Virus record (IMG/VR): IMGVR_UViG_3300037104_000592
Span: 1 to 64,000 of that record
Length of the DNA: 64,000 nt
Strand: one strand, 5' to 3'
From: a virus
Shown: positions 12,614 through 61,710 of the stretch, piece by piece
Layout of the letters: every line of letters starts with the position of its first letter
Position numbering within the stretch: the stretch's first letter is position 1
Notes under the pieces: model-generated
What the model saw: the letters and a program-made list of their open reading frames with translations, nothing else
Databases searched by the model: none
What the model was told of the DNA's origin: nothing
Made by a program: the position numbers and the translations under genes

Positions 12614-13375
12614 ATGTTGTGTCATTATGGGTGTGGGAATGAAGCATCTTATAAGTTTAAAAATGGTATAATGTGTTGTTGTAAAAGTCAGAACTCATGC
12701 CCAGAAATGAGAAAGAAAAATATAGGATGCTTAGGTAGAAAATTTACATGGTCTAGAGAACATATAGAAAAAATAAGAATAAAAAATAAAGGAAAGATTA
12801 GAACACCCGAACAAATAAGAGTAAACTCAGAATCACATATTGGAAAACACCATGATGAAAAAACCAAAAAAAAGATAAGCGAAAAACTAAAAGGTAAAAA
12901 CAATGGAATGTTTGGAAAAAAACATACAGAAGAATGGTTAGAAAATCATAAAAAAAGAATGATAAATGGTCAAGCAATTCACATGAATAAATGTAAACCA
13001 ATAGAAGAAAGAGAAAGATCAAGACAACGAATGTTAAATGGAGAAGCAGCGAGAATTCAAAAATTTATAAAAAACCCATCTAATGAAGAAGTTTTATTAA
13101 GAAATATAGTTAAAAAATTATATCCAGATTGTGAATTTCAACATCAAGTTTTTAATTATTCTTTAGATGTTGCTCTATTAGAATTTAAAATTGCTATTGA
13201 ATATGATGGTCATTATCATTTTCATACAGAAGAAGCAAGAAAATACTTTAAAAATAGACAAACTAGAATTGAAAATGAAGGATGGAAATTTATTAGATAT
13301 ACAATATTTGATAAATTTCCATCCAAAGAACAAGTTGAATATGATATTAAAAAAATAATTGAAGGTATAAACTAA
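12614..13375 (+). CDS. Free-standing endonuclease: CxYGCG Zn module, NUMOD3 repeats and Vsr/DUF559-like domain
   Basis: MLCHYGCG..KNG..CCC; NGMFGKKHTEE; LDVA...IAIEYDGHYH...GWKFIRY. Confidence 0.8.
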   Translation: MLCHYGCGNEASYKFKNGIMCCCKSQNSCPEMRKKNIGCLGRKFTWSREHIEKIRIKNKGKIRTPEQIRVNSESHIGKHHDEKTKKKISEKLKGKNNGMFGKKHTEEWLENHKKRMINGQAIHMNKCKPIEERERSRQRMLNGEAARIQKFIKNPSNEEVLLRNIVKKLYPDCEFQHQVFNYSLDVALLEFKIAIEYDGHYHFHTEEARKYFKNRQTRIENEGWKFIRYTIFDKFPSKEQVEYDIKKIIEGIN

Positions 13376-16300
13376 TGATTAGGTTTTTAGATTTGGATGA
13401 TTTTACAAAAGGACTAAAACCAGTATCTAGCACCAATTATACAACAAAAACTGGGGAATTTGATACTCAAGGATTATTTTCAGAACTTATTTTTGGAACA
13501 GTTGGGTCATTAGATAGAAAAACTAAATTCTCATATATAAATTTAAATGCACTTGTGGTTCACCCAACTGCTTTAAAATTATTAATTCAGTTAAATAGAA
13601 AAGTTGAAAAATTTATATCCACCGAAGATTCTTTTATTCTTGATAAAGATGGTTCATTATTAGAAGATAATAAAGGGGCTACAGGAATAACAGCATTTAT
13701 AAAACTATTTCCAAAAATAAAGTGGAGAGGTGAGTCAGGAGAAAGAGATAAGATAGTTCAACTTTTAGAACATGCTTATAAAAATAATAGATTATTTGTA
13801 AATAAACTTCCAGTAATTCCAGTAGATGATAGACCTATATTTCAAAATGAAGTAACCAAAGAATGGACTGTTGATAATCTAAATGAATATTATGTAAAGA
13901 TCATACGTCAATCTTTATCTATGAGAAGTTCGGGTGGAAAAGGTCCATTATATGACTTATTAAATTATGGGTTACAAAAATCTGTTATAAATCATGATGA
14001 ATATATAAGAGCAAAGGTTGGAAAGAAAAGTGGTATTATTCGAAGTCAATTAATGGGCAAAAGAATAGAGTTTTCAGGAAGGGCCGTTATAACTGGAGGA
14101 CCTGAATTAAAAGTTAATGAAATTGGTATTCCATTCAAATTAGCTGTATCTTTATTTTATCCATTTATAATGCATGAACTTTTATATACAAATAAATTCG
14201 ATAAAAAACAATTGGGTGAAGAAATTAAAAGTTATATAGGAACAGATTTATCTGTATCTTCAATTCAAAAAGTTTTAAAAAATATAACAAAAGGAGATGA
14301 AATTCCTGAAGGTCTTTATAAAATAATATATCAAGCAACAGATAACTCAATGGTTAATAGAGTTGTTTTAGCTAAAAGAGATCCTGTTTTACATCCTGAA
14401 TCTGTAAGAGGGTTTAGACCAGTTTTGATTGAAGGAAATACAATTAAATTATCAACTCTTATGGTCGGTGGATTCAATGCAGATTTTGATGGAGATCAGA
14501 TGGCTATATTTCATCCTTTATCAAAAGAAGCACAAGAAGAAGTAAGAACTAAAATGATAAGAGGAGTAGGAGGAACCAATTCTAGTTCTCTTACATTTGA
14601 ATTATCAAAAGAAATGTGTGTGGGATTATATATTTTATCAAAGAATATTGAATCTAAAAAACCACCTATTAAACCAACACCAGAAGATTTAATAAAAGCA
14701 ACGGATCCATATGTTCCAGCTATGTTTAAAAATAGACATACTACAATGGGAAAAGCAATTATAAATAGTTGTTTTCCAGATGATTTTAGGTTTGTTGATT
14801 CTTTAATTACTAAAAAAGTTGCAAATGGATTATTATTAGAAATAATTAATAAATATGGTCAAGAAATAGCATACAAATCTGCAACAAAATTAAAAGATTA
14901 TGGATTTAAATTTGCTACTATCATGGCACCAAATATGTCAATAGATGATATTCAAATGCCTCCAAAAATGTATGTATTAAAAGCTAAATTAGAAAAATCA
15001 TCTACAGAAGAAGCTATTCCTATTTTAGAAGAAATGAAAAAATTAATGATAGAAACTTTGGAGGGATCTGGATTATCTGATTTAACTGAATCAGGAGCAA
15101 CAAAAGGATGGGATCAACCATTTCAGATGTTGTGCGCAAAAGGAATAATTGCAGATCCTGAAGGTAATATATTACCTATAATAAAAGGATCATTTGGTGA
15201 TGGGTTAACAGTTGAAGAATATTTCAATGCAACAGCTGGTGCTAGAAAAGGCATAATTGATAGAGTTTTAAATACATCAGATACAGGATATACTTCCAGA
15301 CAATTGATTTATCTTTTAAATTCTGTTGAATTGGATTGGCATTTAAAAGATTGTAAAACTACAAATTATTTAGAGTTAAAATTAACAGATGATTTGATTA
15401 GAAGGTTAACTGGAAGATATGTAATTATAAGAAATAATTTAGAATTATTTGATAAATCTAAATTTAAATCAGGAGATATAATAAAATTAAGATCTCCTAT
15501 TTTTTGTAAAAGTTTAAAACTATGTCATACCTGTTATGGAAAATTATTAGAAAGACTTAAAAGTCCATATGTAGGTGTAATCGCAGCTCAAGTGGTCGGG
15601 GAAAGAGGAACCCAATTAACAATGAGATCAATTCATGTTGGTGGAGTTGTTAAAGTTGGAGTTAAAAAAATATTAAGTGATATATTAGAAAATGATCCTT
15701 ATATTAAAAAAGAAGAGTTAGAAAAAAATATAGATCAAGTTGATTCTAATTTGGTATCTTTAAAAAAATGTAAAATGATTTTATCACTAGAAGATTATGA
15801 TATAGGTGATAATTTATCTATAAATGAAGAAGATGGTTTTATTTGGGTTAAAAGTTTAATATCTATAATGGAATTTGAGAATGGAGAAAAATTTAATATA
15901 ATATTAGATTATAATGTTGAAATTTCAATGGTATCTGAAGTTATAAATGATAAAAAAACAATAACTATTTTTTTCGGTGAAAATGATAAAATCTTAGAAG
16001 TTCCATTAACTCAAGAGGATATAAAAGCTCAAGTTTTATATTTAGGTAGATTATTGGGTGGAAGAGAATTATTTAAAGATGTAAATCATTTGTTTATGAA
16101 ATTATATAAAATATATGGCGCTCTTCCTGGTGATATGGATCTAGTTCATTTAGAAGTTTTATTATCACAATGTTTAAGAGATAAAACCAATCCAATGTAT
16201 CCAGCTAGAGTTGGAAAAGATCCCTATAATCCAGTTTTAGTAAATATAAAAACAAATGTATTTAGCACGTCCTTCGTGCAGGGACTTTGTTTTGAGAATG

Positions 16301-16407
16301 TCGGAAAAGCAATAAAAACTGGATTATTAGAAGATAAAAGTATGCCTCCGTCTATATTGGAAAAAGTTCTGACTGGCACACTAGTAGAAAAGGAAAAGAA
16401 AGATTAA
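13375..16407 (+). CDS. Phage multi-subunit RNA polymerase beta'-like subunit (set 1)
   Basis: GLFSELIFG, GKRIEFSGRAVI, KRDPVLH, catalytic FNADFDGDQMA, bridge helix ARKGIID..TSDTGY, C-terminal Zn site, trigger loop GERGTQLTMRSIH. Confidence 0.95.
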   Translation: MIRFLDLDDFTKGLKPVSSTNYTTKTGEFDTQGLFSELIFGTVGSLDRKTKFSYINLNALVVHPTALKLLIQLNRKVEKFISTEDSFILDKDGSLLEDNKGATGITAFIKLFPKIKWRGESGERDKIVQLLEHAYKNNRLFVNKLPVIPVDDRPIFQNEVTKEWTVDNLNEYYVKIIRQSLSMRSSGGKGPLYDLLNYGLQKSVINHDEYIRAKVGKKSGIIRSQLMGKRIEFSGRAVITGGPELKVNEIGIPFKLAVSLFYPFIMHELLYTNKFDKKQLGEEIKSYIGTDLSVSSIQKVLKNITKGDEIPEGLYKIIYQATDNSMVNRVVLAKRDPVLHPESVRGFRPVLIEGNTIKLSTLMVGGFNADFDGDQMAIFHPLSKEAQEEVRTKMIRGVGGTNSSSLTFELSKEMCVGLYILSKNIESKKPPIKPTPEDLIKATDPYVPAMFKNRHTTMGKAIINSCFPDDFRFVDSLITKKVANGLLLEIINKYGQEIAYKSATKLKDYGFKFATIMAPNMSIDDIQMPPKMYVLKAKLEKSSTEEAIPILEEMKKLMIETLEGSGLSDLTESGATKGWDQPFQMLCAKGIIADPEGNILPIIKGSFGDGLTVEEYFNATAGARKGIIDRVLNTSDTGYTSRQLIYLLNSVELDWHLKDCKTTNYLELKLTDDLIRRLTGRYVIIRNNLELFDKSKFKSGDIIKLRSPIFCKSLKLCHTCYGKLLERLKSPYVGVIAAQVVGERGTQLTMRSIHVGGVVKVGVKKILSDILENDPYIKKEELEKNIDQVDSNLVSLKKCKMILSLEDYDIGDNLSINEEDGFIWVKSLISIMEFENGEKFNIILDYNVEISMVSEVINDKKTITIFFGENDKILEVPLTQEDIKAQVLYLGRLLGGRELFKDVNHLFMKLYKIYGALPGDMDLVHLEVLLSQCLRDKTNPMYPARVGKDPYNPVLVNIKTNVFSTSFVQGLCFENVGKAIKTGLLEDKSMPPSILEKVLTGTLVEKEKKD

Positions 16408-17442
16408 ATGAAAACTTCAAAAAGAGAATATATTAAGAGCTGGTTTTTAAAAAAATATGAAAATAATAAATTAAAACCAAATACTTTTAGAATAATAAAA
16501 GAAAGCTTTCGAAATATATATGATGATATTATATCAGAAACTACATATCTAAATAAAAATTCAAGAATTTCAGAAAGATTGTTTCATATTTTTAATAATA
16601 TTTTTGAAGTTAAAAGATGTTTTTGTGAAAAAAATTTGGGTTATTTAGATATAAACAGAGGGTATGAAAGATGTTGTAAAAAGTGCAGACGTAAGGGGAA
16701 AATCAAACCAAAACTGTTGATTAATAAAAATAATATTTTATGTGATTATGGGTGTGGAAAATTAGCTAATTATATTTTATCAAACAATAAGAATTGTTGT
16801 AAACCAACTTTTGGAAAATGTGAAGCTATAGAACGAAAAATTCCAAGATCTAAAGTCAAGCATAAATATACATATAGTAAATGGATAAATAAATATCCAA
16901 TTTTGAAAGAAAATGAAGAACTTAGAAGTATAAATGAAATGTTAGAAGTTCAATGTAGAGAATGTAAGAACTGGTTTAGTCCAACTGCGGATCAATTATA
17001 TTTTAGAATTAAAGCGCTAGAAGATAAGAAAACTATCTATAAAAATAGAAATGTAAATTCTTATTTATTTTGTTCAAATGAATGCAAAGAAAAATCTTTA
17101 GAATATAGAAGAAGCAATACTATAGAAACTTCTAAAAAATATGAAAGTTATAGAAATATTGTTAATATAAAAACTATAAAAACTATAAGAAAACATAGAG
17201 ATAAAATTCTTAATATTGAGAATTGGAAAAAAGGAAATGCGATAGATCATAAATTTTCAGTTAGAGCTGGATTTGATAATAATATATCTACTGATATTAT
17301 TTCTCACTGGAAAAACCTTGAAGTTATGACATTTTCTATAAATGCAAAAAAACATAAAAAATGCTCAATAACTATTGATAAGTTGATTGAAGAGATTAAA
17401 AAAGATGATAAAAATTTTATATTTGAAGGAAAAACTAAATGA
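16408..17442 (+). CDS. Free-standing HNH endonuclease with CDYGCG module, inserted between beta' and beta
   Basis: LCDYGCG..KNCC; CRECKNWF..FCSNEC; IDHKFSV..HWKNLEV..N. Confidence 0.75.
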   Translation: MKTSKREYIKSWFLKKYENNKLKPNTFRIIKESFRNIYDDIISETTYLNKNSRISERLFHIFNNIFEVKRCFCEKNLGYLDINRGYERCCKKCRRKGKIKPKLLINKNNILCDYGCGKLANYILSNNKNCCKPTFGKCEAIERKIPRSKVKHKYTYSKWINKYPILKENEELRSINEMLEVQCRECKNWFSPTADQLYFRIKALEDKKTIYKNRNVNSYLFCSNECKEKSLEYRRSNTIETSKKYESYRNIVNIKTIKTIRKHRDKILNIENWKKGNAIDHKFSVRAGFDNNISTDIISHWKNLEVMTFSINAKKHKKCSITIDKLIEEIKKDDKNFIFEGKTK

Positions 17443-20400
17443 TTAGATTTGAAGTTTTCAAGCAATATTCACAAGTTACAGATGGATTGCGATATACTAT
17501 AAAAGAGCAACCATATATGCTGCTGTATCTCTCTGAAAACTCTACATTAATAGATGACTTTCACAAATTAAATATAAGATTAATAGATATTAGAATGGCA
17601 GTTATTCCTAGAACTACAATTCCGAGAACATTCTTAACTCCAGAACTTAGAAAAATATATAATAAAATACTGGGGTTATATTCATATCCAGCAAATATGA
17701 AAATTCCAAAAAATAAAAATTTTATATTTGATCCTACTAATTTTATAAAGGAGGTTGATGAAACCTATCATCCTGATAACTATAGACAAAAAGCAGGATT
17801 TTTAATTAAAAATCAATTAGAAAGCGCCCTTTTAAATTATCCAGGATATAAAAAAGTTTTGATATATTCAATAGATGTTACTAAAACTTTTAATAATTTT
17901 GTTGATAGAAAAATATTTCCTATAATTCAAGACTTAAAAAATAATGATATTAACTTTGATGATTTATTACTTGTAACTTTAAATGAATCTTCAGTTCGAT
18001 ATAGATTATTAGTTAAGGATAGAAAATTTGATTTTCAAAAAATTATGGTATATATAAAAACAATTAAACATATTGATCTTGAAGAAGAAGTTGAAGATGA
18101 AACAAAAGAAGCATCTGAAAAAGTAGCAGCGATTCTTCCAGCTCATATAAAAAATAAAGAAAAAATAAAAGATGCAGTTAAACATTATCTAAAAAAAGAT
18201 TCTAACACATTAGATAAGGTTAATAATAATGAATTTAAACCAGAAGAGTTAAAAACAATTGCTATAAAATCAGTTTTCTTTAGATCAACTAATAATATGG
18301 TAAGAGCAAATAATATAGTTGACAAAGTTAAACCTGAAAAAATTGATACATTATTAAAAGTTGTTGATAAACATTATGCAGATGAATTAATTCCAAAAAA
18401 AGATGTTGTAGACACAACTGATGATTTAGTTGTAAAGTCATATAATGTTAAATCTGCTGTAGGTAATAAAGCTCCAGATCATTTATTTATAAAAAGACAA
18501 ATGGATTTTAAAACAAATCTAAAGCATGATATGACTAATTCATTTAAGACATTAGAAACTAAAGAGATTCCATTAAAAATTGAAAAAATGGAAATTACAG
18601 ATAAACCACTTAAAAAGAATGAAATAATGAAATCAGATTTAAGTTTAGTTAAGGTTTCATTAAAAGATGAATTTGGAAAAAAACATAATGTAACAATTGA
18701 AATTCCAAAAATTGATCCTAATTCAGGAACGTTTAGAGTAAATGGGAGGACCAAGTGCTTAGTTAATCAAATAGTATTATGTCCAATAACATTTTTAAAA
18801 CCATATGACTCAAAATTTGAAAGTTCATATTCTACGTTTCATATTAGAAGTAAACGAACAAAGAGAATGAATTATTTAGAAATTTATATGGGTTCTTTCA
18901 AAAATTTACCTTTATTAATATTGTTAACATATAGTTTTGGATTTGATGAAACAATGAAACAATATGATATAAAGTATGAAATAAAAACAGAAAAACCAAA
19001 AAAGACTGAAAAGTTTGCATGTAAAATAAATGCAACCGAATATATTTACTTTGAAAATATTAATACAGAACTAAAACAAGAATTGATTACATCATTTATA
19101 AATGAAGGTATAGATAAATATGATATAAAACATAAATTTGGAACTAAAGAATATTTAAATGATTTGATTATAAAAATCACTGGAAGAGTTAATTCTACAT
19201 TTCTTTTAAATGCAAACCTTGAAAATATTATTGACCCAGTTGCAAAACAAGTTTTAATAAATAAAGGACTTCCTCATGAGTTGAAATATATAATGCAATA
19301 TATGGCTACCAAAGTTGTATCAGGTTTTTCTGAAAGTAGAAATGATTTAACAAATCAAAGAATTAGAGGATCAGAAGTAATAGTTAATTTAGCTCAAAAA
19401 CAAATTTTATCTGCATATACTGTATATAAAGAACAGGTTTTAGCAGGTAATAAAAATGCAGAATTTTTAGTTAATCCAACAAAAGTTTTGAGTGCATTTT
19501 TAAATTCAGAAATTGTTGTTGATATGGAATATGCAAACCCAATTGAAGAAATGGCGGTTATGACTAGAATATCTCCAGTTGGAAAATCTATTGGTGGTAT
19601 TGCAAATGCAAATGCAATTCAATCAAGCGCTAGAAATGTAAGTCCATCTTATTTTGGGAATATTGATCCTCTTGATACACCAGAAGGACCAAATGTTGGA
19701 ATAACTCAACAATTAGCTTTAGGAGCAATGGTATCATCTTCAAGAGGATTATTTACTACTAAAAAAATATCAAATGAAGAAGGATCTGGAATTTTATCTA
19801 CTTCTACTTGTATGATTCCATTTATTGAAAATAATGATGGAAATAGAATTCAATTTGCAGCTAATCAATCGAGACAAATGTTACCATTAAAAAACCCTCA
19901 ACCTCCAGTTATAAGATCTGGGTATGAATCTGTTTTAACGAATGTCTTATCTGATAATTTTATTAAAAAAGTTCCTGAGAGATCTAAAGTTTTATCAGTA
20001 ACAAGTGACCATATAATATTAGTTGGAAAATCAGGAAAAAAATATGATATTAATTTAACTCCTATTCATTTAAGATCTGGAACTGGTCGAGATACTTTAA
20101 GTATTTTTAAAACTAAAGTTGTTAAAGGTCAAATTGTAAATGAAGGACAAATTTTAGCAGAAGGAAGTTGTATAAAAGATGGAGCAATTTCTTTAGGTAG
20201 AACTTTATGTGTTGGGTATATGCCCTATAAAGGATATAATTTTGAAGATGGAATTATTATAAATGAAAAATTAGCAACAAATGATATGTTAACATCTTTG
20301 CATGGGTTAGAAGAAGAAGTTTTAATTTCTGAAAAAGATAGAGTTTTATTTATAGCAAATATTGGAGATAGACTTAAAAAAGGAGAACCATTACTAAGAA

Positions 20401-21533
20401 AAACTATTGGAGAAATTGAGCAATTAATTGGATTTGAAGATATTGAAGATGATACAACATCAGTATATGGTCAGGATTTAATTAAGACGAGTCCAGGTGG
20501 TCTTATTGTTGATCTTGAAGTTTTTTGTAATGTTAGTGATGAAAAATTTCCAAAATTAAAATTTTATATTGATAGAACAAGAAAAAGATATGGTGTTTCT
20601 GCAGATCAAAAATTTGTAGTAAAGGGAGTATCTATAAAAGGAGCTCTTGTAAGATTTAAAATAGAACAAGAATTAAAAATTGAAACTGGAGATAAATTAA
20701 CTAATAGATTTGGAGCTAAAGGAATCATTACATTAATAGAAAAAGATGATTTAATGCCAAGAACTCCGTGGGGAGATAGATTAGATGTTATATTAAATCC
20801 TTTGGGAATTATTGGTAGAATGAATCTTGGACAATTATATGAGTTATATTGTGGATTAATTTCTAGAGCTTTAGTTATTAAATTACTTTCTTCTAAAAAT
20901 AAAAAGCAAGCGCTAGATGTAATGACAAATGTTTTATCAAAATTAGATACATCTAAAAATAAAGAATATACAAATAAAATGGTTGGATCTATTGCAAAAT
21001 TAAGCGATAGACAATTTTCATTATTAATTACTCAGATAAAAGATAGTGGTTTTATTCCTATTATAATTCCACCATTTAAAGCTCCCAAACCTAATCAAAT
21101 AATGGAAGCTTTAAAAATGTTAGATTTGAAACCAGGATACCATTTGTATCTTCCTGAGTTTGGAATTAAAACACACGATGCAGTTCCTGTTGGATATATG
21201 TATGTTTCAAAACTAGAACATATTGGAGAGATGAAAATACATGGTAGATCAACTGGACCTGTTGTTGGAAAAACATCACAACCAACACAAGGAAAAAGTA
21301 GAGAAGGTGGTCAGAGATTAGGAGAGTCAGATGTTCATGTTTTAATTGGATATAATTGCCCAAAACTATTATCAGAATTAATGGGACCATTGTCTGACGA
21401 TACTATTAGTAAAAATGAAATGATTTCTGATATAATTCAAACAGGAGAAACAACCTTCAGAGTTCCTAAAATTTCTCCTGCTAAAGATTTATTAAACGCA
21501 TATTTTATTTCGTTAATGTTGGAGAATAAATAG
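17439..21533 (+). CDS. Phage multi-subunit RNA polymerase beta-like subunit (set 1) with long N-terminal extension
   Basis: DPLDTPEGPNVG, IPFIENNDGNR, GYNFEDGI, GDKLTNRFGAKG, NPLGIIGRMNLGQ, KLEH, GGQRLGE. Confidence 0.95.
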   Translation: MIRFEVFKQYSQVTDGLRYTIKEQPYMLLYLSENSTLIDDFHKLNIRLIDIRMAVIPRTTIPRTFLTPELRKIYNKILGLYSYPANMKIPKNKNFIFDPTNFIKEVDETYHPDNYRQKAGFLIKNQLESALLNYPGYKKVLIYSIDVTKTFNNFVDRKIFPIIQDLKNNDINFDDLLLVTLNESSVRYRLLVKDRKFDFQKIMVYIKTIKHIDLEEEVEDETKEASEKVAAILPAHIKNKEKIKDAVKHYLKKDSNTLDKVNNNEFKPEELKTIAIKSVFFRSTNNMVRANNIVDKVKPEKIDTLLKVVDKHYADELIPKKDVVDTTDDLVVKSYNVKSAVGNKAPDHLFIKRQMDFKTNLKHDMTNSFKTLETKEIPLKIEKMEITDKPLKKNEIMKSDLSLVKVSLKDEFGKKHNVTIEIPKIDPNSGTFRVNGRTKCLVNQIVLCPITFLKPYDSKFESSYSTFHIRSKRTKRMNYLEIYMGSFKNLPLLILLTYSFGFDETMKQYDIKYEIKTEKPKKTEKFACKINATEYIYFENINTELKQELITSFINEGIDKYDIKHKFGTKEYLNDLIIKITGRVNSTFLLNANLENIIDPVAKQVLINKGLPHELKYIMQYMATKVVSGFSESRNDLTNQRIRGSEVIVNLAQKQILSAYTVYKEQVLAGNKNAEFLVNPTKVLSAFLNSEIVVDMEYANPIEEMAVMTRISPVGKSIGGIANANAIQSSARNVSPSYFGNIDPLDTPEGPNVGITQQLALGAMVSSSRGLFTTKKISNEEGSGILSTSTCMIPFIENNDGNRIQFAANQSRQMLPLKNPQPPVIRSGYESVLTNVLSDNFIKKVPERSKVLSVTSDHIILVGKSGKKYDINLTPIHLRSGTGRDTLSIFKTKVVKGQIVNEGQILAEGSCIKDGAISLGRTLCVGYMPYKGYNFEDGIIINEKLATNDMLTSLHGLEEEVLISEKDRVLFIANIGDRLKKGEPLLRKTIGEIEQLIGFEDIEDDTTSVYGQDLIKTSPGGLIVDLEVFCNVSDEKFPKLKFYIDRTRKRYGVSADQKFVVKGVSIKGALVRFKIEQELKIETGDKLTNRFGAKGIITLIEKDDLMPRTPWGDRLDVILNPLGIIGRMNLGQLYELYCGLISRALVIKLLSSKNKKQALDVMTNVLSKLDTSKNKEYTNKMVGSIAKLSDRQFSLLITQIKDSGFIPIIIPPFKAPKPNQIMEALKMLDLKPGYHLYLPEFGIKTHDAVPVGYMYVSKLEHIGEMKIHGRSTGPVVGKTSQPTQGKSREGGQRLGESDVHVLIGYNCPKLLSELMGPLSDDTISKNEMISDIIQTGETTFRVPKISPAKDLLNAYFISLMLENK

Positions 21534-21566
21534 CGTGTAAAAACTGTTTTATATAGGAGATTAAAG

Positions 21567-21740
21567 ATGAAAACAATTCTCGATGAAATGAAAAATAATG
21601 CTTTAATTTCTGCATATGAAATGGTTGTAGGAAAAGATACACAAAATGATGTAAAGAAAAAAGAAGATGTTTTTAAATTTTTAACAATATTATATCCAAA
21701 AGAAATGACTAAAATAATAAAGGAAGAAGATGGAAAATAA
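21567..21740 (+). CDS. Small 57-aa protein missing from the ORF track (MKTILDEMKNN...)
   Basis: AGGAG RBS; overlaps the start of the next gene. Confidence 0.55.
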   Translation: MKTILDEMKNNALISAYEMVVGKDTQNDVKKKEDVFKFLTILYPKEMTKIIKEEDGK

Positions 21741-22573: not shown

Positions 22574-22574
22574 A

Positions 22575-22608: not shown

Positions 22609-22649
22609 AGTATAAGAGTAAGATTTATATTATAATTTCGCTTTACTGT

Positions 22650-24711: not shown

Positions 24712-24731
24712 CATATTTGGAGAATACAAAA

Positions 24732-52721: not shown

Positions 52722-52730
52722 GGATTTATT

Positions 52731-53204: not shown

Positions 53205-53249
53205 TTTGTATTATTAAAAATATTATATTATAAAGAATCGGAGTTACTT

Positions 53250-53768
53250 ATGAAAGAAACACTAGATAAGCTTACAGATGAAGGTGTAAAGCAACTAAAA
53301 TATTATTATAAGAAAACAAGGCTCTTTGGAAATATTTGCACTGTTTGTTTACTTATTGGAGAAAATAATGAACTTATTTCAAGAGGAGTTTCTATTTGTT
53401 CATTATTAGATTCTCATAAAAAATCAACAGGAAAAAATATTGCTTTAGGAAGAGCAATAAAAGCTCTAAAAAATAAGAAAACAACAGATGAAATAAATCC
53501 AAATAGAGATTCTTTAACACATTGGATGTATACTAAAAATATAAATAAAAAAGATCCTTATTTTAGCGATATGTTTGAAGAAATTAAATATAATTGCTTT
53601 TCTACAAAACCTTTAAAAATTAATAAAGAAGAAGTTTTAAAAGTTGAAATACCAATGGATTTTCCATTGTATGCAACTGTATCATTATTTACACATAAAT
53701 CTTCATTTAAACCAACTCCTACGGATGAAGAAGTTAAAATAATTGAAAAAAGAAAAAAGTTAGATTAA
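53250..53768 (+). CDS. Conserved phage hypothetical protein
   Basis: SRGVSICS..D...K.TGKNIALGRA motif. Confidence 0.6.
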   Translation: MKETLDKLTDEGVKQLKYYYKKTRLFGNICTVCLLIGENNELISRGVSICSLLDSHKKSTGKNIALGRAIKALKNKKTTDEINPNRDSLTHWMYTKNINKKDPYFSDMFEEIKYNCFSTKPLKINKEEVLKVEIPMDFPLYATVSLFTHKSSFKPTPTDEEVKIIEKRKKLD

Positions 53769-53777
53769 ATTTTTAGA

Positions 53778-53945
53778 AAAATTGGGGTGGATAATCATAC
53801 TGAATAAGTGGTTTTGAAACCTGGTACTAAGAAAGAGTGCGAACTCTGGGGCAGGAACCCAGATAGAAGCTTTAGATGGCTCGATAGCTGACTGATAGAT
53901 ATTGCACCCAAAGTGCCTTATCCAGTATTATTCCACCCCAATTTT
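53778..53945 (+). ncRNA. Putative structured non-coding RNA (~170 nt, multibranched)
   Basis: GC-enriched intergenic island. Long closing stem (AAAATTGGGGTGGA..ATACTG.ATAAG with CTTAT.CAGTAT..TCCACCCCAATTTT) and internal hairpins including GAGT-GCGA-ACTC. Confidence 0.65.
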
Positions 53946-53957
53946 AGGAGATTAAAA

Positions 53958-54200
53958 ATGGGTAGTTATAATCAAGATAAAGATGTTTTAATAAAAATGT
54001 TTGAAATGATTACAGATGAAAAGGGTTCTTCTCTAATGTTGTCTATTTTTTCATACGACAATGGACCGAAAAAATTAGCAATGACAAGATCATATAATAA
54101 AAAAGATGGATCTGTTGGATATTCTTCAGCAGGTAGATTAAGTCTTATGGAAGTTAATTTTCTAAAAGATAAATTAGATGAAATAATTAAAGAGATGTAA
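53958..54200 (+). CDS. PC4/YdbC-like ssDNA-binding protein
   Basis: LSIFSYDNGPKKL..TR..KKDG...GRLSLMEV; AGGAG RBS before ATG 53958. Confidence 0.6.
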   Translation: MGSYNQDKDVLIKMFEMITDEKGSSLMLSIFSYDNGPKKLAMTRSYNKKDGSVGYSSAGRLSLMEVNFLKDKLDEIIKEM

Positions 54201-54227
54201 CCCTCCCGATAACTATTTTTGATTTAA

Positions 54228-54240
54228 AGAACAAATAAAA
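54228..54240 (+). promoter_or_regulatory. Putative late-promoter motif AGAACAAA
   Basis: Lies in the gap before the GGAGG RBS of the second E1. Confidence 0.45.
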
Positions 54241-54256
54241 GTCGTGGAGGAATAGA

Positions 54257-55132
54257 GTGTATAAAGATATAGCGATTATAGGTTTAGGAAGTATAGGAGG
54301 TTTTTTATCGAGCAATATCATAAACATAGACACAATAAAATCTTTGGTTTTAGTTGATTATGATAGAGTAGAACTGGAAAATTTGAAAAATTCAATTTAT
54401 AAAAAATCAGATGTTGGGAAATTTAAAGTTGAATGTGTATCTTCCGTTATAAAATTGTTCAATAGTGAAATAAATATTACAGCAATAAAAGATAGATATA
54501 TAGAGGGAAAAACAAAAATTCCAAAATGCGATTTAGTTATTGATTGTAGAGATTTTGTTTATGATAGAGGTTCAGAAATAAATATGAGATTATATATCTC
54601 TTCTAGACATTTAATAATTGATTGTAGAAAAGATATAAAATATCAATTACACTATGAAGGAAAATATATAGATACATTAACAAAATCTGATATTTATTCT
54701 GCTACAGCTAATTTGTCAAGATTGATATTTAATGAAGAATTAAATGATATAATTAAAAACAATTTAGTTCATACAATAGATATGGATGAATGCTTAAAAT
54801 CAAGTGAAGAAACTTTAAATAACTATAATAATAAAATGGAAGTTGTTATGGATTATCATAAAAAGAATGATTGTTTCATAAATTTTCTTGAAAATGCAGA
54901 AAATATAATAAATTTCAATAAAAAAAGTGAAGTGAAAATTTGTCTAAACGATAAAAGATTTCCATTATCTACTAAAATAATACCAAAAAATTATATTCAA
55001 AATGTAAATGACTTAAGTAAAAATTTTTTATCAATAATACCAGCTAAAAATCATAGTAGTTATATAGTTAAATCAATTATAGAAAAAAATATTTGTTATG
55101 TAATTTTAATACCAGAAACAGGGGCTGCTTAA
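54257..55132 (+). CDS. Second, divergent ThiF/E1-like protein
   Basis: IAIIGLGSIGG, LVDYDRVELENL, DVGKFKV, DLVIDCRD; GTG start with GGAGG RBS. Confidence 0.8.
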   Translation: MYKDIAIIGLGSIGGFLSSNIINIDTIKSLVLVDYDRVELENLKNSIYKKSDVGKFKVECVSSVIKLFNSEINITAIKDRYIEGKTKIPKCDLVIDCRDFVYDRGSEINMRLYISSRHLIIDCRKDIKYQLHYEGKYIDTLTKSDIYSATANLSRLIFNEELNDIIKNNLVHTIDMDECLKSSEETLNNYNNKMEVVMDYHKKNDCFINFLENAENIINFNKKSEVKICLNDKRFPLSTKIIPKNYIQNVNDLSKNFLSIIPAKNHSSYIVKSIIEKNICYVILIPETGAA

Positions 55133-55134
55133 AA

Positions 55135-55476
55135 ATGAGCATAAAAACTATTACTATTGAGAAAAAAATAACACCAAGAATTGCTATTTATAAACGAGAT
55201 GCCTTTGATATTTTAGAGGTTGATCCAGAATTCATGATAAATAAATATGAGATAACTTTAAAAGAATCAAAAGTAGTTTCTTTAAAATTATTTGCTTTAC
55301 ATCCAAATTGTAATCCAGATACTGGAGAATTTTGTTTAGGTCCTGACATAATTGAAAATCAAGCAAATGAATATCTTTTAGAAAAAGTTATTCCTTATAC
55401 ACTATCAGTATATAATTTAGATAGTTGTTATTTCAGGCCAAAAAATGGAAAAGTAAAATATGGAATAATGAAATGA
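55135..55476 (+). CDS. Minimal UBC/E2-like protein
   Basis: LHPNCNPDTGEFCLG (HPN-x8-C); immediately downstream of the E1-like gene. Confidence 0.65.
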   Translation: MSIKTITIEKKITPRIAIYKRDAFDILEVDPEFMINKYEITLKESKVVSLKLFALHPNCNPDTGEFCLGPDIIENQANEYLLEKVIPYTLSVYNLDSCYFRPKNGKVKYGIMK

Positions 55477-55495
55477 TTAGAGAGGTGGTGATTAT

Positions 55496-55919: not shown

Positions 55920-55926
55920 AAACTAA

Positions 55927-58623
55927 ATGCCAAATATATTAAACATAGATAAGTTTTGTGAAAACTTAAAAGGAATTTCTTCTTTAAAAGCTATTGATAA
56001 AAGAAAATTCCATCCAAATGGATTATTCTCAGAGCAGATATTTGGTCCTTTAAAAAATTATACATGTCAATGTGGAATATATCATGGAGTATCCAATGCA
56101 GGTGGAACTTGCGAAATATGTGGAGTTGATATTGTTCATAGTATTGAGAGAAGAAGAAGATTTGGAAAAATTGTTCTACCTTTGAAAGTTGTTAATCCAA
56201 TTTTTTATGATTTGGTTATAAAATTGGGTGGAAATATATTAAAAAAGAATATAGATGAGTTAATGAAAAATGAAAAAAGTTATTTATATAAAGATGAAAA
56301 TGATTATATTGTAGAAACTAAGTTACCCCATCCTACTAATACTCAAATATGGGATAGATCTGAAGCAATTTTTGAATTAGTAAATGGACTTGCTACAGAG
56401 TTGGGAAATAATGAAAGTGGAATGGGAATTAAAGAATGGGAATTAATAAAAAATAATATTGATTGTTTATTTATTAAAAATGTTATAGTGTTACCACCTG
56501 ATTTAAGACCTGCTGCAAAAGGAATGGATAAGAACGATCAACGAATGGATAAGATAAATAGATTTTATGTTCAAATTCTTACAAAAAAAGAAAGTATGAG
56601 AAATACTCCTATAAATATAGAAACTGATAAAAGCGTATATTACAATTTTTTCAAGCAATTACAGAGAGATGTTAATGAATTATATGAACATATTATTTCA
56701 AAAATATCCAAGAAAGAAGGTTTAATAAGAGGAAATATTTTAGGGAAGAGAATAGATTTCTCAGGTAGAGCTGTTATTGTTCCAGAACCTTCTTTGAAAT
56801 TAGATGAATGTAGTCTTCCATATTTAATGGTTTTAGAATTATTTAAAATTCAATTATCTAAAAAACTTATAGATTTAAAACAGTTTAAATTATTAAATGA
56901 AGCAATTGATTTTGTTGATAGGTGTATAGAATTATCAGATCCTATTTTATTTAATATTTGTCAAGACATAGTTAAAAATGAAGTTTGTTTACTTAATAGA
57001 CAACCAACTTTACATAGATTAGGAATGATTGGATTTAAGATAAAAACTTCTTTAGATAAAGTTATAAAGATACACCCCCTAGTTTGTCCAGGATTTAATT
57101 CGGATTTTGATGGAGATCAAATGGCAGTATATATTCCGATTTCTGATAGGACAAAAGCAGAAGTTAGAGAAAAATTTATGTCAACTAAAAATTTATCTAA
57201 TCCTTCAAATGGAAGTTTAATTACTATTCCAAGTCAGGATATGGTTTTAGGAATTTATATGTTGACTACATCATCATTTGGAGAAGTTGAATATAAAGGT
57301 GAAAAAATAACAATTGGATCCAAAATATTCAATGAATGTTTACCAAGTGATTATCCATTAATAAATGGTTCAATAAATAATAAGATCTTAAAAGAAACAT
57401 TAAATGATATTAAAAATAAATATCCAGATGAAATAGTAACTGAAGTATTAGATAAAATAAAAGAAGTTGGTTTTAGATTTTCAACAATATATGGAACCTC
57501 AATGTCTTTGAAGCATATTTCAATTGATGGAATTGATAAAATTAAAAATGATATTTATTCATTGGATAATATTCAAGATCAATTATCTGCAATCTCTAGT
57601 AAAAAAACTGAAGATATAATGAGGAAAAACTTTAAATATTCTTATCTTATAGATTCAGGTGCAAGAGGAAAATGGGATCAGGTAAGACAAATAATTTTAA
57701 CAAGAGGATATATTTCTAATTTTCAAGGAGATATTCTCCCAACCCCAATAAAGCATAATTTAATAGAAGGTTTAGATCAACAAGAGTTTTTTAATTCAAC
57801 ATACGGTTGTAGAAAAGGATTATTAGATGTTGCATTAAATACAGGTGATTCTGGATATTTATCTAGAAAATTAATTTTCACTTGTGTTAACTTAATAATT
57901 GGGGAAGAAGATGATTGTGGAACAACAGATTATCTTGATATATTAGTTACTAGTGAAAAGAAAGCAAAAATGTTAATTGGAAGATATTATTTAAATGATG
58001 GAAATTTATCTGAAATAACAGTTGAAAATCATAAAGGATTTGTTGGAAAATTAATTCAACTTAGAAGTCCTATTTTCTGTAAAAATGAAGAACTATGTCA
58101 TAAATGTTATGGAAACTTATATAAAAATTTACATAGTAAGTTTGTAGGAATTATAGCTGCTCAAGCATGTGGAGAAGCTGGAGTTCAGCTAATTTTGAGA
58201 ACATTCCATACAAGTGGTGTAGCAAAGATTTCGGAAGATCAAACAGATATGAGACAGTCAGATATCGTAAGTGATTTATCTTCTGTATCAAAAGTTCTTC
58301 ATAATAAAGATAAAAAGGAATATAAAGAATTAGTTTCTAATTTATTTGACTTATATATTATAAATAGAGATATTCACCATATTCATTTTGAATGTATAAT
58401 TTCTCAAATGATGTGGAAAGGTTTTAGAAAATGGAGACTTCTACCAAATAGAGATAAAATTTCTTCAGACTATTATTCAATTCAAACAGTTCCTGAAAAA
58501 GAAAGTTGGATTGTAGGATTAGCTTTCTCAAATCCAAAAAACCATATTTTAAAAGGAATTGTTCAAGATGGAAATTATAAAGGAATTTTTGATAAAATAA
58601 TGCTAGGAGAAATACCTAGATAA
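55927..58623 (+). CDS. Phage multi-subunit RNA polymerase beta'-like subunit (set 2)
   Basis: GLFSEQIFGP, Zn finger CQC..CEIC, VLPPDLRP, GKRIDFSGRAVI, NRQPTLH, FNSDFDGDQMA, RKGLLD, LRTFH. Confidence 0.95.
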   Translation: MPNILNIDKFCENLKGISSLKAIDKRKFHPNGLFSEQIFGPLKNYTCQCGIYHGVSNAGGTCEICGVDIVHSIERRRRFGKIVLPLKVVNPIFYDLVIKLGGNILKKNIDELMKNEKSYLYKDENDYIVETKLPHPTNTQIWDRSEAIFELVNGLATELGNNESGMGIKEWELIKNNIDCLFIKNVIVLPPDLRPAAKGMDKNDQRMDKINRFYVQILTKKESMRNTPINIETDKSVYYNFFKQLQRDVNELYEHIISKISKKEGLIRGNILGKRIDFSGRAVIVPEPSLKLDECSLPYLMVLELFKIQLSKKLIDLKQFKLLNEAIDFVDRCIELSDPILFNICQDIVKNEVCLLNRQPTLHRLGMIGFKIKTSLDKVIKIHPLVCPGFNSDFDGDQMAVYIPISDRTKAEVREKFMSTKNLSNPSNGSLITIPSQDMVLGIYMLTTSSFGEVEYKGEKITIGSKIFNECLPSDYPLINGSINNKILKETLNDIKNKYPDEIVTEVLDKIKEVGFRFSTIYGTSMSLKHISIDGIDKIKNDIYSLDNIQDQLSAISSKKTEDIMRKNFKYSYLIDSGARGKWDQVRQIILTRGYISNFQGDILPTPIKHNLIEGLDQQEFFNSTYGCRKGLLDVALNTGDSGYLSRKLIFTCVNLIIGEEDDCGTTDYLDILVTSEKKAKMLIGRYYLNDGNLSEITVENHKGFVGKLIQLRSPIFCKNEELCHKCYGNLYKNLHSKFVGIIAAQACGEAGVQLILRTFHTSGVAKISEDQTDMRQSDIVSDLSSVSKVLHNKDKKEYKELVSNLFDLYIINRDIHHIHFECIISQMMWKGFRKWRLLPNRDKISSDYYSIQTVPEKESWIVGLAFSNPKNHILKGIVQDGNYKGIFDKIMLGEIPR

Positions 58624-58644
58624 AAAATTTTAACACCTCAGGAG

Positions 58645-61600
58645 GTGAAATTAGTGGATATAATAAATCCAAACTATAAAATAAATGAAGAAAACAATAT
58701 ATTTTCAATAAGAGAAAAAGAATATAACTTAATAAAAGATAATGTAAGAGAAATTTTAAAAGCAGCAGAAGAAGTTGGTTTTTTAGTTAATGAACTTGGA
58801 ATAACGGAATCTAAATTCTCATCTGGAGAATTACAGAAAACATTAAAGAAAAATTTAGTTATAAAATTAAGACGAGGATCTTCTGACATAGACTTATCTA
58901 TGGCTATTCCAAAATTAATTGATAAAAATTATGTTATAATTGGAGGAAGGAAAAAAGTTCCTTTATTTCAATTATTTGATATTCCTGTAGTTACAAGAGG
59001 AAAAACTATAAAAATCAGAACCAATGTAGCAAGTATGATGATAGTAGATGAAAAAGAATTTCCATTTATTCATCTATCAATTTTTAATAAAAAAGTTCCA
59101 TTGTCCTTAGTCATATTTGCTTACTATGGTTTAGAAGAAACAAAAAATAAATTTAGTTTAGATAAAATAGAAATTCCTGAAATAAAAACTTTACATGATA
59201 AATTAATGACAGATTTAAAAGATTTTTATGAAGGATCAGAAGGGTTTACAAAAGAAGAATTTATCAAAGAAGTTGGTAAATTCTTCTCAACAAATGATGC
59301 AAAAAATAAAGGTGAAGATTTAATTTATGCTCTAGATCTTATTTTAAAGACCGATATAATGTCAGCTAAATTTTTCAAAACTGGAAACATTTTAGATGAA
59401 ATTGTTGAGGTTATTAAATTAGGTGGTTATGATGATACTGATTTAAGAAATAAAAGAGTAAGGTGTTTTGAATATGTAATTTTAGCTAAAGTATCTAAAG
59501 CAATATTTGATCTATGTATGTCAAATAGATCAACCACAAGACAAGCTAAATTTAATGTAAATTCCAGTCAAATTTTATCAGATTGTAATGTTTCAGATAT
59601 TGTTCAATTTGATTTTTCAATAAATCCAATTGAACAATTAACAAAATTAACAAGAACAAGTTTGGTTGGTCCTGGTGGGTTTGACAGAGAAAATGTTCCA
59701 GAATATCTAAGAGATATTAATCCATCAATGTTTGGAAGAATTTGTCCTGTTGATACTCCTGATAGAGATAACTGTGGAATATTACAAAGTTTATTACCAA
59801 ATACACCATTAGATGAAAATTTAAAATTTACAGATGAATCATTAGAAAAATCACCTATTTCTATTCCAGTTTCTTTAGTTCCATTTTTAGAACATGATGA
59901 TCAAACTAGATTACAAATGGCATCATCACAAATGAGACAGTCTATTATGTTATCAGAGTTTGAAGTTCCTATGGTTCAATCGGGATGTGAAGGGTTATAT
60001 ACAGATCATAGTAGCTTTATAAAAAAGGCTAGAAAAAATGGAAAAGTATCTTATGTAGATCAGTTTAATATAATTATTGTTTATGATGATAATGATTATG
60101 ATATTTTTGATGTATCAAATAGAAGAATATATGTTGAAAATATGGATGTTATGAACATATATGTTTCTAAAGGAGATAAAGTTAAAAAAGGAACGATTAT
60201 TGCTGAAAGTAATTATTGTAAAGATGGAAAAATAAATTTTGGAAGAAATTTATTAACAGCTGTTATGCCATATTATGGATATAATTATGAGGATGCAATT
60301 GTTATTTCTGATAGATTAGTAAAAGAAAATATTTTTACATCTATTCATTATATTGATTTATCATTTGTATTACCAGCAGATAAAATTTTACTTAGTTTAG
60401 AAAAAGATAAATATAAACCCCTTCCAACTCCAAAACCATATATAGATTTGGAAGAAGGAATTACAGAAGAAGAAAAAAGAAAAAGAAAAAGAGAATTAGT
60501 TTTAAAGGGTCAACATTATGCTATAATTAAACAAATTCCATCTACTACTTTGGATTACAATTCTATTTTCGAGGAAGAGATACCTTTAACTGCTAAAAGA
60601 GATATTTTAGTAACTGAAGTAAATATTTATCCTAATAAATGGAATGACTCAATTCCAAAATTTAATGAATGGATAGATAAAAAATCTAAAGAACAAATAG
60701 ATCAAGAGAATAAATTTAAGAGAATTATTTATGAAAATCTACCAAAAAGAAATGCTGATCAATATATAAGAGATCATAATCTAGATAGATTTTCTCATAT
60801 TGGAAAGTTTAAAATTAAAGGTGAAGAAATAAAAGGAACTTTAATTGAGATGTTTGGTTTTTATGTTAGACCAATTACTATTGGAGATAAGATTGGAAAC
60901 AGACATGGAAATAAAGGTGTAATTTCAAAAATAGTTCCACATAATCTTATGCCTAAATTAGAAGATGGAAGAAATGTTGATATATGTATAAATCCTTTAG
61001 GTGTTCCTTCGAGAATGAATGTTGGTCAAATATTTGAGTTACATTCTGCAATGTCTTTATATGATTTAAAAAAGACTATGTTAAAAATGATAAAAGAAGG
61101 AAAATCCAAAGACGAATTGAAAACATATATTTTAAATTATATTAAAATCATTGATAATACAGAAAATAATTGGTATTATAAACAGTTTGAAAAAAATATA
61201 AAAACTATAAATAAAAAGTTTATAGAAGATCTTACTATTCTTGCTCCACCATTTGAATCATCAACTAGAAAAATGATATTAGATGCTTGTGAATATACAA
61301 ATACCAAAACTGAATTTAAAGTATACGAACCATATGAAAAAATTGATATTCATGATATAGCTTGTGGGTTTATATATTTCTTTAGAATGGTTCACATAGC
61401 TGAAAATAGATTAGCAGCTAGAGGGATTGGTTCATATGGAAGAAGAACAATGCAACCAGGTGGTGGTCGTAAACACAAAGGAGGACAACGTTGTGGAGAG
61501 ATGGAAATCGCAGCAATCATTGCTCATGGTGGACTTGAAAATCTATATGAAACTTTAACAACCAAGTCAGATTGTATAGATCTTAAAAATAAACATATTA

Positions 61601-61710
61601 AGCAAGAAATAGGATCAGATTTCTTTAGAGAAAAAGAAGGAGATATTATAAAACCTGAAGCAGTTCAGCTTTTAGAGAATTATCTAACTGTTTTGGGTAT
61701 AGAAAAATAA
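58645..61710 (+). CDS. Phage multi-subunit RNA polymerase beta-like subunit (set 2)
   Basis: GRICPVDTPD, PFLEHDD, GYNYEDAI, GDKIGNRHGNKG, NPLGVPSRMNVGQ, GGQRCGEME. Confidence 0.95.
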   Translation: MKLVDIINPNYKINEENNIFSIREKEYNLIKDNVREILKAAEEVGFLVNELGITESKFSSGELQKTLKKNLVIKLRRGSSDIDLSMAIPKLIDKNYVIIGGRKKVPLFQLFDIPVVTRGKTIKIRTNVASMMIVDEKEFPFIHLSIFNKKVPLSLVIFAYYGLEETKNKFSLDKIEIPEIKTLHDKLMTDLKDFYEGSEGFTKEEFIKEVGKFFSTNDAKNKGEDLIYALDLILKTDIMSAKFFKTGNILDEIVEVIKLGGYDDTDLRNKRVRCFEYVILAKVSKAIFDLCMSNRSTTRQAKFNVNSSQILSDCNVSDIVQFDFSINPIEQLTKLTRTSLVGPGGFDRENVPEYLRDINPSMFGRICPVDTPDRDNCGILQSLLPNTPLDENLKFTDESLEKSPISIPVSLVPFLEHDDQTRLQMASSQMRQSIMLSEFEVPMVQSGCEGLYTDHSSFIKKARKNGKVSYVDQFNIIIVYDDNDYDIFDVSNRRIYVENMDVMNIYVSKGDKVKKGTIIAESNYCKDGKINFGRNLLTAVMPYYGYNYEDAIVISDRLVKENIFTSIHYIDLSFVLPADKILLSLEKDKYKPLPTPKPYIDLEEGITEEEKRKRKRELVLKGQHYAIIKQIPSTTLDYNSIFEEEIPLTAKRDILVTEVNIYPNKWNDSIPKFNEWIDKKSKEQIDQENKFKRIIYENLPKRNADQYIRDHNLDRFSHIGKFKIKGEEIKGTLIEMFGFYVRPITIGDKIGNRHGNKGVISKIVPHNLMPKLEDGRNVDICINPLGVPSRMNVGQIFELHSAMSLYDLKKTMLKMIKEGKSKDELKTYILNYIKIIDNTENNWYYKQFEKNIKTINKKFIEDLTILAPPFESSTRKMILDACEYTNTKTEFKVYEPYEKIDIHDIACGFIYFFRMVHIAENRLAARGIGSYGRRTMQPGGGRKHKGGQRCGEMEIAAIIAHGGLENLYETLTTKSDCIDLKNKHIKQEIGSDFFREKEGDIIKPEAVQLLENYLTVLGIEK

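Follow-up and report, generated by a model that had tools for sequence, protein, structure and literature searches.

Two undivided multisubunit RNA polymerase cores in an uncultured jumbo phage and the likeness of one of them to the virion enzymes of phiKZ/AR9-type phages

Two multisubunit RNA polymerase (RNAP) cores, each consisting of one beta' and one beta subunit, were identified in a 64-kb stretch of phage DNA (the window), which is the first 64 kb of the 82,376-bp IMG/VR virus record IMGVR_UViG_3300037104_000592. Their source is an uncultured jumbo phage of the mReC clade (multi-subunit RNAP-encoding Caudovirales), whose whole genome should reach about 300 kb since CheckV rates the record as 26% complete. 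The two cores, called here set 1 and set 2, are intact, and they are old paralogues rather than recent duplicates. By analogy with phages of the phiKZ/AR9 type, set 1 would be the undivided counterpart of their virion RNAP (vRNAP) and be packaged, and set 2 would have a non-virion role like that of their non-virion RNAP (nvRNAP), a reading to which we give a probability of about 0.55. Set 1 would then probably be produced late and enter the particle, to be injected for transcription of the early genes, and set 2 would probably be made after infection for the middle or late genes.

The two beta'/beta pairs and their occurrence in the clade

Rpb1 Pfam domains were found in both beta' genes and Rpb2 domains 3/6/7 in both beta genes, all above the Pfam cut-offs and in four ORFs of 898 to 1364 residues, i.e. 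within the mReC definition (beta and beta' unsplit, with 800 residues or more each):

13375..16407, + strand: beta'1, 1010 aa; NADFDGD at residue 368; trigger helix 1 GERGTQLTMRSIHVGG at about residues 745-760; without the N-terminal zinc-binding domain
17439..21533, + strand: beta1, 1364 aa; Rpb2 domains 3/6/7; GDK...GAKG; about 333 extra N-terminal residues compared with beta2
55927..58623, + strand: beta'2, 898 aa; NSDFDGD at residue 391; intact zinc-binding domain (C47, C49, C62, C65); trigger helix GEAGVQLILRTFHTSG
58645..61710, + strand: beta2, 1021 aa; compact; Rpb2 domains 3/6/7; GDK...GNKG

The 82-kb contig carries exactly two beta' and two beta genes, all four being single open frames, with beta' preceding beta in each set. 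The active-site lysine motif GDK...G(A/N)KG is kept in both beta subunits. The literal filter used to define mReC phages, NADxDGD, is matched by beta'1, whereas the NSDFDGD of beta'2 would fail it. The initial annotation of this DNA had described two distinct and unsplit beta'/beta pairs, with NADFDGD and NSDFDGD and in the beta'-then-beta order; Pfam, motif searches and the open frames bear out this description. Both pairs are indeed present, but the genes of set 1 are not tightly paired in the window, where an ORF of 344 residues (16408-17442) lies between beta'1 and beta1. The absence of an alpha subunit, also claimed, extends to complete relatives: neither alpha (PF01000) nor sigma70 region 2 (Sigma70_r2, PF04542) turned up in the five long relatives searched, of which two are complete, with the control genomes detected; omega was not searched for. 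Identity between set 1 and set 2 is about 30.6% for beta' and 26.0% for beta, and residues 374-1362 of beta1 align with residues 41-1020 of beta2 in blastp. The GC content at third codon positions (GC3) is alike in all four genes (0.106-0.120) and, therefore, composition gives no sign of a chimera.

In IMG/VR, beta'1 has about 290 relatives and beta'2 about 200, and both sets are found on at least 12 independent contigs. Five long relatives contain exactly two beta' genes each, on one strand and 34-44 kb apart (43 kb in the window); among them are two complete genomes with direct terminal repeats, G001 (312,420 bp) and G004 (277,131 bp). More divergent relatives are in the same two-set state, including a third complete genome (G006, 284 kb), and exactly two beta' genes occur in each of the three complete genomes with terminal repeats. 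G004 is WOR52_10000459 (IMG/VR 3300001782_000005; GC content 25.7%), which belongs to the dataset of the mReC paper and matches beta'2 of this contig at 61%. Across the clade, both sets retain 50-58% identity. The neighbourhood counts given below concern 24 related set-1 loci and 80 related set-2 loci.

A misassembly joining loci of two different phages, or the decay of one set as a duplicate, is extremely improbable. The contig is a fragmentary metagenomic record, which leaves room for misassembly, but the same pair of sets recurs in the three complete genomes that have terminal repeats, as well as on many contigs from different samples, and in the five long relatives both sets lie on one strand at a similar distance. 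The common GC3, the intact catalytic motifs and the conservation of both sets across the clade also speak against misassembly or decay. The chimera that the initial annotation named as the danger to its proposal is excluded by the presence of both sets in the three complete relatives and on at least 12 other contigs.

Set 1 and the virion RNAPs of phiKZ/AR9-type phages

Virion and non-virion pieces of the phiKZ/AR9-type enzymes were told apart by the annotations of their records and, for the N-terminal pieces of virion beta', by their orthology to phiKZ gp180. Each of the seven N-terminal pieces of virion beta' gives a higher score with beta'1 than with beta'2 (bits with beta'1 and beta'2, respectively: LPJP1, 102.8 and 39.4; AR9 gp144, 85.2 and 20.9; PB50, 79.4 and none; phiKZ gp180, 70.3 and 29.5; EL, 56.9 and none; SPLA5c, 39.3 and 10.2; Goslar, 28.2 and 22.0), and beta'2 is preferred by three of the four non-virion beta' pieces. 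On the beta side, the long virion beta scores better with beta1 in LPJP1, Goslar and PB50. The N-terminal portion of AR9 virion beta gp188 is matched by beta1 only, and the N-terminal piece of the AR9 non-virion beta, gp104, by beta2 only.

The two sets also differ by the CxC...CxxC zinc-binding domain of bacterial beta'. This domain is absent from 12 of 12 set-1 proteins and from all seven virion pieces. It is present in 15 of 15 set-2 proteins, in the three cultured phages that carry a single set and in the non-virion pieces of phiKZ, Goslar and EL. In set 1 and in the virion pieces, the boundaries of the deletion are identical and its flanks similar (...IFGx before it and xGSxD/E-Rxx.F.YIxL after it); the AR9 non-virion piece has a different deletion. 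The use of this absence as a mark of vRNAPs is our own observation on seven phages and not a published criterion.

Set 1 fragments far more readily than set 2. The set-1 beta' frame ends at about residue 780 in 7 of the 24 relatives, and an insertion is found nearby in three others. In loci L014, L017 and L018 the stop lies about 25 residues after trigger helix 1, so that beta'1 is split inside the trigger loop. The C-terminal piece of the AR9 virion beta', gp263, ends at the equivalent of about residue 770 and the non-virion piece runs 237 residues further, an end point that agrees with the extra small C-terminal piece described for virion beta' (PMC7598289). In locus L020 (781-4914), and also in L025 and L028, an in-frame insert of about 377 residues lies inside the trigger-helix motif of set-1 beta' (…AIMR, then the insert C…HN, then SFHTGG); it has canonical intein ends, starting with Cys and ending with His-Asn, with Ser next. 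The beta1 gene is split or frameshifted at about residues 455, 300 and 1088 in three relatives (L010, L026 and L028). In set 2, both genes are intact in 79 of the 80 loci, the lone break lying at about residue 720 of beta2 (L035). Fragmentation may be in progress in set 1, whose genes would have been split by the invasion of homing endonucleases and inteins, at several sites of which one is close to a break of vRNAPs. In the window itself, beta'1 and beta1 are single ORFs and do not form the core of at least five polypeptides typical of vRNAPs. The proposal that set 1 is the virion-type enzyme, made by the initial annotation from gene context, thus gains support by homology from the boundaries of the zinc-domain deletion, the asymmetry of the scores and the split in the trigger loop. 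Set 2 is compact, slowly evolving, almost never split and more bacterial-like, and it keeps the zinc-binding domain.

A short element upstream of the set-1 module had also been linked to set 1:

8976..10430, + strand: o484, conserved ORF of 484 aa with no known function; tblastn matches in 20 of 24 set-1 loci; no Pfam or PHROG match
10431..10438, + strand: AGAACAAA element, directly after the stop of o484; candidate promoter of the set-1 module
12165..12611, + strand: o148, conserved ORF of 148 aa that directly precedes beta'1 in relatives; matches in 16 of 24 loci, ending 10-50 nt before beta'1

The total number of AGAACAAA copies in the window is not above chance (10 compared to 8.2 expected), and five of the 10 copies on the + strand of the 82-kb contig fall in the 3.9% of it that is intergenic. 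In the relatives, AGAACAA(A) is found between the homologues of o484 and o148 in 13 of 13 cases, for a background of 0.45 per kb, and its frequency upstream of the set-2 module is at about chance level (13/72 and 18/61). The set-1 and set-2 operons therefore differ in their upstream signals, and the link between the element and set 1 is stronger than it was when first proposed. As a simple discriminator of the two sets, AGAACAAA was rejected, its total being at chance and copies preceding both sets here; only the comparison across relatives separates them. No copy was found directly upstream of the capsid gene of G004, and the AR9 late consensus AACA-(6N)-TA/G fits, by eye, only two of the five intergenic copies. 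In L022 (3808-3925), L024 and L021, AGAACAA is immediately preceded by what looks by eye like a terminator, a GC-rich hairpin with a run of T after it. The set-1 module may thus begin at a junction of terminator and promoter.

Phylogenetic trees were built for the N-terminal part of beta' (58 rows, 474 columns, LG+C20+F+G4) and for beta (42 rows, 677 columns). The phage RNAPs form one clade apart from the 14 (beta') and 10 (beta) bacteria included, and the bacteria separate at 100/99 support in the beta' tree. In this tree, bootstrap support is 96% for set 1 with the virion and non-virion pieces and 67% for set 1 with the virion pieces, which is the maximum-likelihood topology, compared to 22% for virion with non-virion pieces, 2% for set 2 with non-virion pieces and 0% for set 1 with set 2. 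In the beta tree, set 1 groups with the cultured phages GN1 and Carin-5 and with the virion and non-virion pieces at 70%, and with set 2 at 0.5%. The phylogeny of both pairs, proposed as a check by the initial annotation, thus leaves little bootstrap support for a grouping of set 1 with set 2, but no alternative was rejected by the approximately unbiased (AU) test. The trees favour an association of set 1 with the phiKZ-type enzymes and a separate lineage for set 2, although by themselves they settle nothing.

The zinc-binding domain common to set 2 and to the nvRNAPs of phiKZ, Goslar and EL is the ancestral state. Since these nvRNAPs keep it, they are unlikely to be nested in the lineage of set 1 and vRNAPs, which would need a second identical deletion. 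The most economical reading of the sequences would be an old duplication into a lineage devoid of the zinc-binding domain and a lineage keeping it. We tentatively suggest, as somewhat less than an even chance, that a system of two polymerases, one zinc-less and packaged, the other zinc-keeping and made after infection, predates the phiKZ/AR9 phages and that mReC phages keep its ancestral undivided state. Alternatively, vRNAPs and nvRNAPs could both derive from a set-1-like ancestor, set 2 being a lineage of mReC phages alone with no counterpart in phiKZ, in which case the likeness of set 1 to vRNAPs would say nothing on a shared division of labour. Taken at face value, the trees join the nvRNAPs with set 1 and the vRNAPs (96% for the beta' N-terminal part; 69% for virion with non-virion pieces in the beta tree). 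However, this scheme has to accommodate the Cys4 zinc-binding domain kept by the nvRNAPs of phiKZ, Goslar and EL, requires three paralogous lineages with differential loss and relies on very long non-virion branches for which the AU test leaves the grouping with set 2 unrejected; we regard it as improbable.

A different alternative concerns the roles of the enzymes. Both could be made after infection and share middle and late transcription, with the host RNAP reading the earliest genes and neither enzyme packaged, as in a relay of the N4 or T7 kind that includes no multisubunit virion enzyme. T4-type phages normally begin with the host RNAP, and the relatives carry a capsid protein of the T4 type, with no chimallin detected. 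Furthermore, both RNAP operons lie in one co-directional replication/recombination block, and some cultured phages (GN1/YerA41 and Carin-5) have only one set, which is unsplit, with an annotated sigma gene beside beta' in Carin-5. Such a relay would leave unexplained that set 1 has the zinc-domain deletion of known virion-borne enzymes and a split point close to theirs, and that its module has a conserved upstream element of its own, which set 2 lacks; it also fits poorly with the failure to find any phage sigma70-type factor in the complete relatives. We therefore consider this alternative unlikely, but less so than the common set-1-like ancestor.

Several observations weigh against set 1 as a packaged vRNAP counterpart and set 2 as the non-virion enzyme. 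The non-virion beta' piece of PB50 is a tie between beta'1 and beta'2, and the virion beta of SPLA5c scores with beta2 and not with beta1. In the beta tree, virion and non-virion pieces group together at 69% and set 1 groups with the virion pieces at only 0.4%. Set 2 groups with the non-virion pieces at 2% and 0% in the two trees, and the grouping of set 1 with set 2 is not rejected by the AU test (log-likelihood difference 24.2, p = 0.106). Long-branch effects are likely since the non-virion branches are very long. A copy of AGAACAAA is also present upstream of the set-2 region in the window (54228). Packaging and timing rest on the analogy with phiKZ/AR9, and the infection biology may differ from that of phiKZ because the capsid protein is of the T4 type and no chimallin was detected. 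A T4 Gp23-type major capsid protein (PF07068) was found in five of five long relatives, to which this search was confined, in place of the phiKZ-type major capsid protein that characterizes Chimalliviridae. A search with phiKZ gp54 (chimallin) gave no match in the same five relatives, a single-sequence search of low sensitivity for such a fast-evolving protein. Overall, the idea of the initial annotation that this phage follows the two-enzyme strategy of phiKZ/AR9 with intact subunits stands as far as the two intact cores and the analogy are concerned, but a strict orthology with vRNAPs and nvRNAPs was not recovered. In particular, set 2 cannot be presented as the one-to-one orthologue of nvRNAPs, a grouping recovered by neither tree although left unrejected by the AU test (p = 0.20 and 0.21).

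Modules, mobile genes and neighbourhood of the two sets

The window has a GC content of about 26% and 42 ORFs of at least 150 residues, all on the + strand. It is mostly devoted to replication, recombination and nucleotide metabolism, with genes for a ribonucleotide reductase, a RecA-like protein, a PD-(D/E)XK nuclease, topoisomerase II subunits and a superfamily 2 helicase, besides SbcCD, QueD, radical-SAM enzymes and a ThiF/JAB cassette. A small structural cluster (6692-8873) is located 4.5-6.7 kb upstream of beta'1:

6692-7081, + strand: baseplate-wedge-like ORF (phrog_22056)
7075-7974, + strand: virion structural protein (phrog_21032)
7986-8873, + strand: gp5-like baseplate hub/tail lysozyme protein with an oligonucleotide/oligosaccharide-binding (OB) domain (phrog_9992/13211/430; Pfam Phage_base_V)

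A tail-lysozyme-type gene adjoins the vRNAP genes in phiKZ, EL and SPLA5c. The loose synteny between these arrangements and that of the hub cluster with set 1 is a suggestive point for set 1 as the vRNAP counterpart. The proximity of set 1 to structural genes, noted initially, is thus real for this cluster, but the capsid gene is about 96 kb away from the set-1 beta' gene in G004. The contrast drawn at the same time between set 1 near structural genes and set 2 among early and replication genes does not hold well since set 1 is otherwise located within the same replication/recombination block.

The conserved set-1 module is o148-beta'1-beta1-o202-o84, and the window adds several ORFs to it:

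10754..11569, + strand: GIY-YIG homing-endonuclease-like ORF between the promoter-like element and o148; Pfam GIY-YIG match weak, below the curated cut-off
12614..13375, + strand: NUMOD3 and DUF559/MTES_1575 homing-endonuclease-like ORF (Pfam) between o148 and beta'1; in 1 of 24 related loci
16408..17442, + strand: "mid" ORF, 344 aa, phrog_5104; sporadic mobile gene
21730-22338, + strand: o202, conserved directly downstream of beta1; matches in 18 of 24 loci
22319-22573, + strand: o84, conserved after o202; matches in 17 of 24 loci

The o148 protein, which has two invariant Cys, as well as o202 and o84, are candidate accessory factors of set 1. The AlphaFold models of o148 (predicted local distance difference test score, pLDDT, 82.7) and of the all-helical o202 (pLDDT 82.3) gave no match in PDB (best E values 0.19 and 0.65, respectively), and neither protein resembles the Carin-5 sigma factor in BLASTP. 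The mid ORF was considered as a third RNAP subunit and ruled out, since none of the 24 related loci has a homologue at its position between beta'1 and beta1, two genes that abut (gap below about 55 nt) in 20 of them. Its homologues occur in only three loci, once inside a split beta'1 (L021). It shares phrog_5104 with the ORF at 24717-25631, likewise present in only three related loci, and this family looks mobile and is possibly homing-endonuclease-like. Two homing-endonuclease-like ORFs are thus wedged between the promoter-like element and beta'1 in the window; the GIY-YIG-like one has no homologue at that place in the 24 related loci. A third homing-endonuclease-like ORF (40291-41109, DUF559/MTES_1575) is directly preceded by a AGAACAAA copy (40106).

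Set 2 also has stable neighbours, namely a ThiF gene (74 of 80 loci), an ORF of 284 residues (72 of 80) and a small ORF upstream of beta'2:

55093..55476, + strand: o127, small conserved ORF; matches in 61 of 80 set-2 loci; no Pfam or PHROG match

The true o127 product is probably about 111 residues long. The ThiF/JAB (E1/E2-like) cassette and a Rho_N-domain protein (48368-55132 in the window) are found beside set 2 in 63-74 of the 80 related loci, which makes this ubiquitin-like cassette a stable neighbour of the set-2 operon.

Other observations concern the phage as a whole. A DUF5131 protein, a QueD-like 6-pyruvoyl-tetrahydropterin synthase and two radical-SAM proteins are encoded in the window (within 37507-38660, 46221-47246 and 28222-29478), and they may hint at a DNA or nucleotide modification of the 7-deazaguanine type. 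The search of cellular assemblies gave no clue to the host, the best 80 of at least 600 matches being ordinary bacterial rpoC genes at about 30% identity. One 193-kb relative with two RNAP sets (G009, IMGVR_UViG_3300027847_002834, locus L025) is classed as a provirus by IMG/VR. This class is unexpected for such a phage and might be a host clue or a misclassification.

Comparison with known systems

The mReC clade has been published (Weinheimer & Aylward 2020, Nat Commun 11:4506, PMC7481178). Its Supplementary Dataset 2 lists "a" (about 1362/1005 residues) and "b" (about 1007/904 residues) sets on single contigs, and the text of that paper mentions neither two RNAPs per genome nor virion and non-virion roles; phiKZ-type enzymes were left out of its trees because of long-branch artefacts (PMC7481178). 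The existence of two unsplit pairs, whose novelty the initial annotation implied, is therefore already in a published table, without comment. Split subunits are the only kind that the reviews report for the phiKZ group (PMC7598289, PMC7824862), in which beta and beta' are cut into four to five proteins that work without alpha or sigma, whether this state is ancient or derived being debated (PMC7824862). According to the 2020 review, purification of a vRNAP had not yet been achieved (PMC7598289), and the origin of the vRNAP/nvRNAP pair, including a duplication in an ancestral jumbo phage, is called unknown in a 2026 review (PMC13282480). Our literature search found no paper on two unsplit RNAPs per phage, on the zinc-domain deletion of vRNAPs or on a connection between mReC and phiKZ phages; a paper on "moraphages" was set aside as irrelevant, these phages having no RNAP genes. 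What appears new here is the identification of set 1 as a putative undivided vRNAP counterpart and the fragmentation of set-1 genes by mobile elements within the clade.

If a two-polymerase system did predate the phiKZ/AR9 phages, this would answer the question, raised in PMC13282480, of a duplication in an ancestral jumbo phage as the origin of vRNAP and nvRNAP. It would also argue for a derived split state, against the relic older than the last universal common ancestor proposed by Iyer et al. 2021. Since the clade offers undivided homologues, a vRNAP-type deletion and splits at several stages, the origin question can be tested by phylogeny and structure. Furthermore, enzymes made from two genes should be much simpler to express and reconstitute than those in five pieces.

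With the other mReC phages, this phage shares unsplit beta and beta' subunits, a T4-type (PF07068) capsid protein, a low GC content and a jumbo size; the link between set 1 and vRNAPs, the zinc-domain character and the natural splits go beyond the published description of the clade. With the phiKZ/AR9 phages, it shares a pair of paralogous enzymes that are encoded by the same jumbo phage and have neither alpha nor sigma70. Set 1 resembles vRNAPs by the boundaries of the zinc-domain deletion, the long beta, the trigger-loop break (in relatives) and the neighbouring hub/tail-lysozyme gene, and set 2 resembles several nvRNAPs by its zinc-binding domain. Homing endonucleases and inteins invade RNAP genes in both groups alike. 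However, each subunit is a single polypeptide here, whereas an enzyme of phiKZ-type phages consists of four to five pieces (PMC7598289). The capsid protein is of the T4 type with no chimallin detected, and the trees do not recover set 2 with the nvRNAPs. No counterpart of the fifth, promoter-specificity subunit of nvRNAPs (phiKZ gp68/AR9 gp226) was recognized, no search aimed at it having been made.

The cultured phages Yersinia YerA41/vB_Yru_GN1, Cobetia Carin-5 and Rhizobium RHph_TM30 carry one unsplit pair, in the beta'-then-beta order in GN1 and Carin-5. They belong to the same phage-wide RNAP clade apart from bacteria, GN1 and Carin-5 grouping with set 1 in the beta tree (72%). They differ by a single set per genome, a retained zinc-binding domain, the motif NLDYDGD and genomes of 145-208 kb. 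In the beta' of GN1 and Carin-5 (L164:5884-9156 and L165:5896-9147), NLDYDGD replaces NADFDGD and the zinc-binding domain is kept; an annotated sigma gene is located directly upstream of the Carin-5 beta' gene and an ORF of 200 residues occupies the same place in GN1. Compared to bacterial RNAPs, both sets have the double-psi-beta-barrel subunits, the Mg-binding DFDGD triad, the beta lysines and the bridge helix/trigger loop, to which set 2 adds the zinc-binding domain, but the gene order is reversed with beta' first, no alpha or sigma70 region 2 was found, and the subunits are shorter and about 30% identical to their bacterial homologues.

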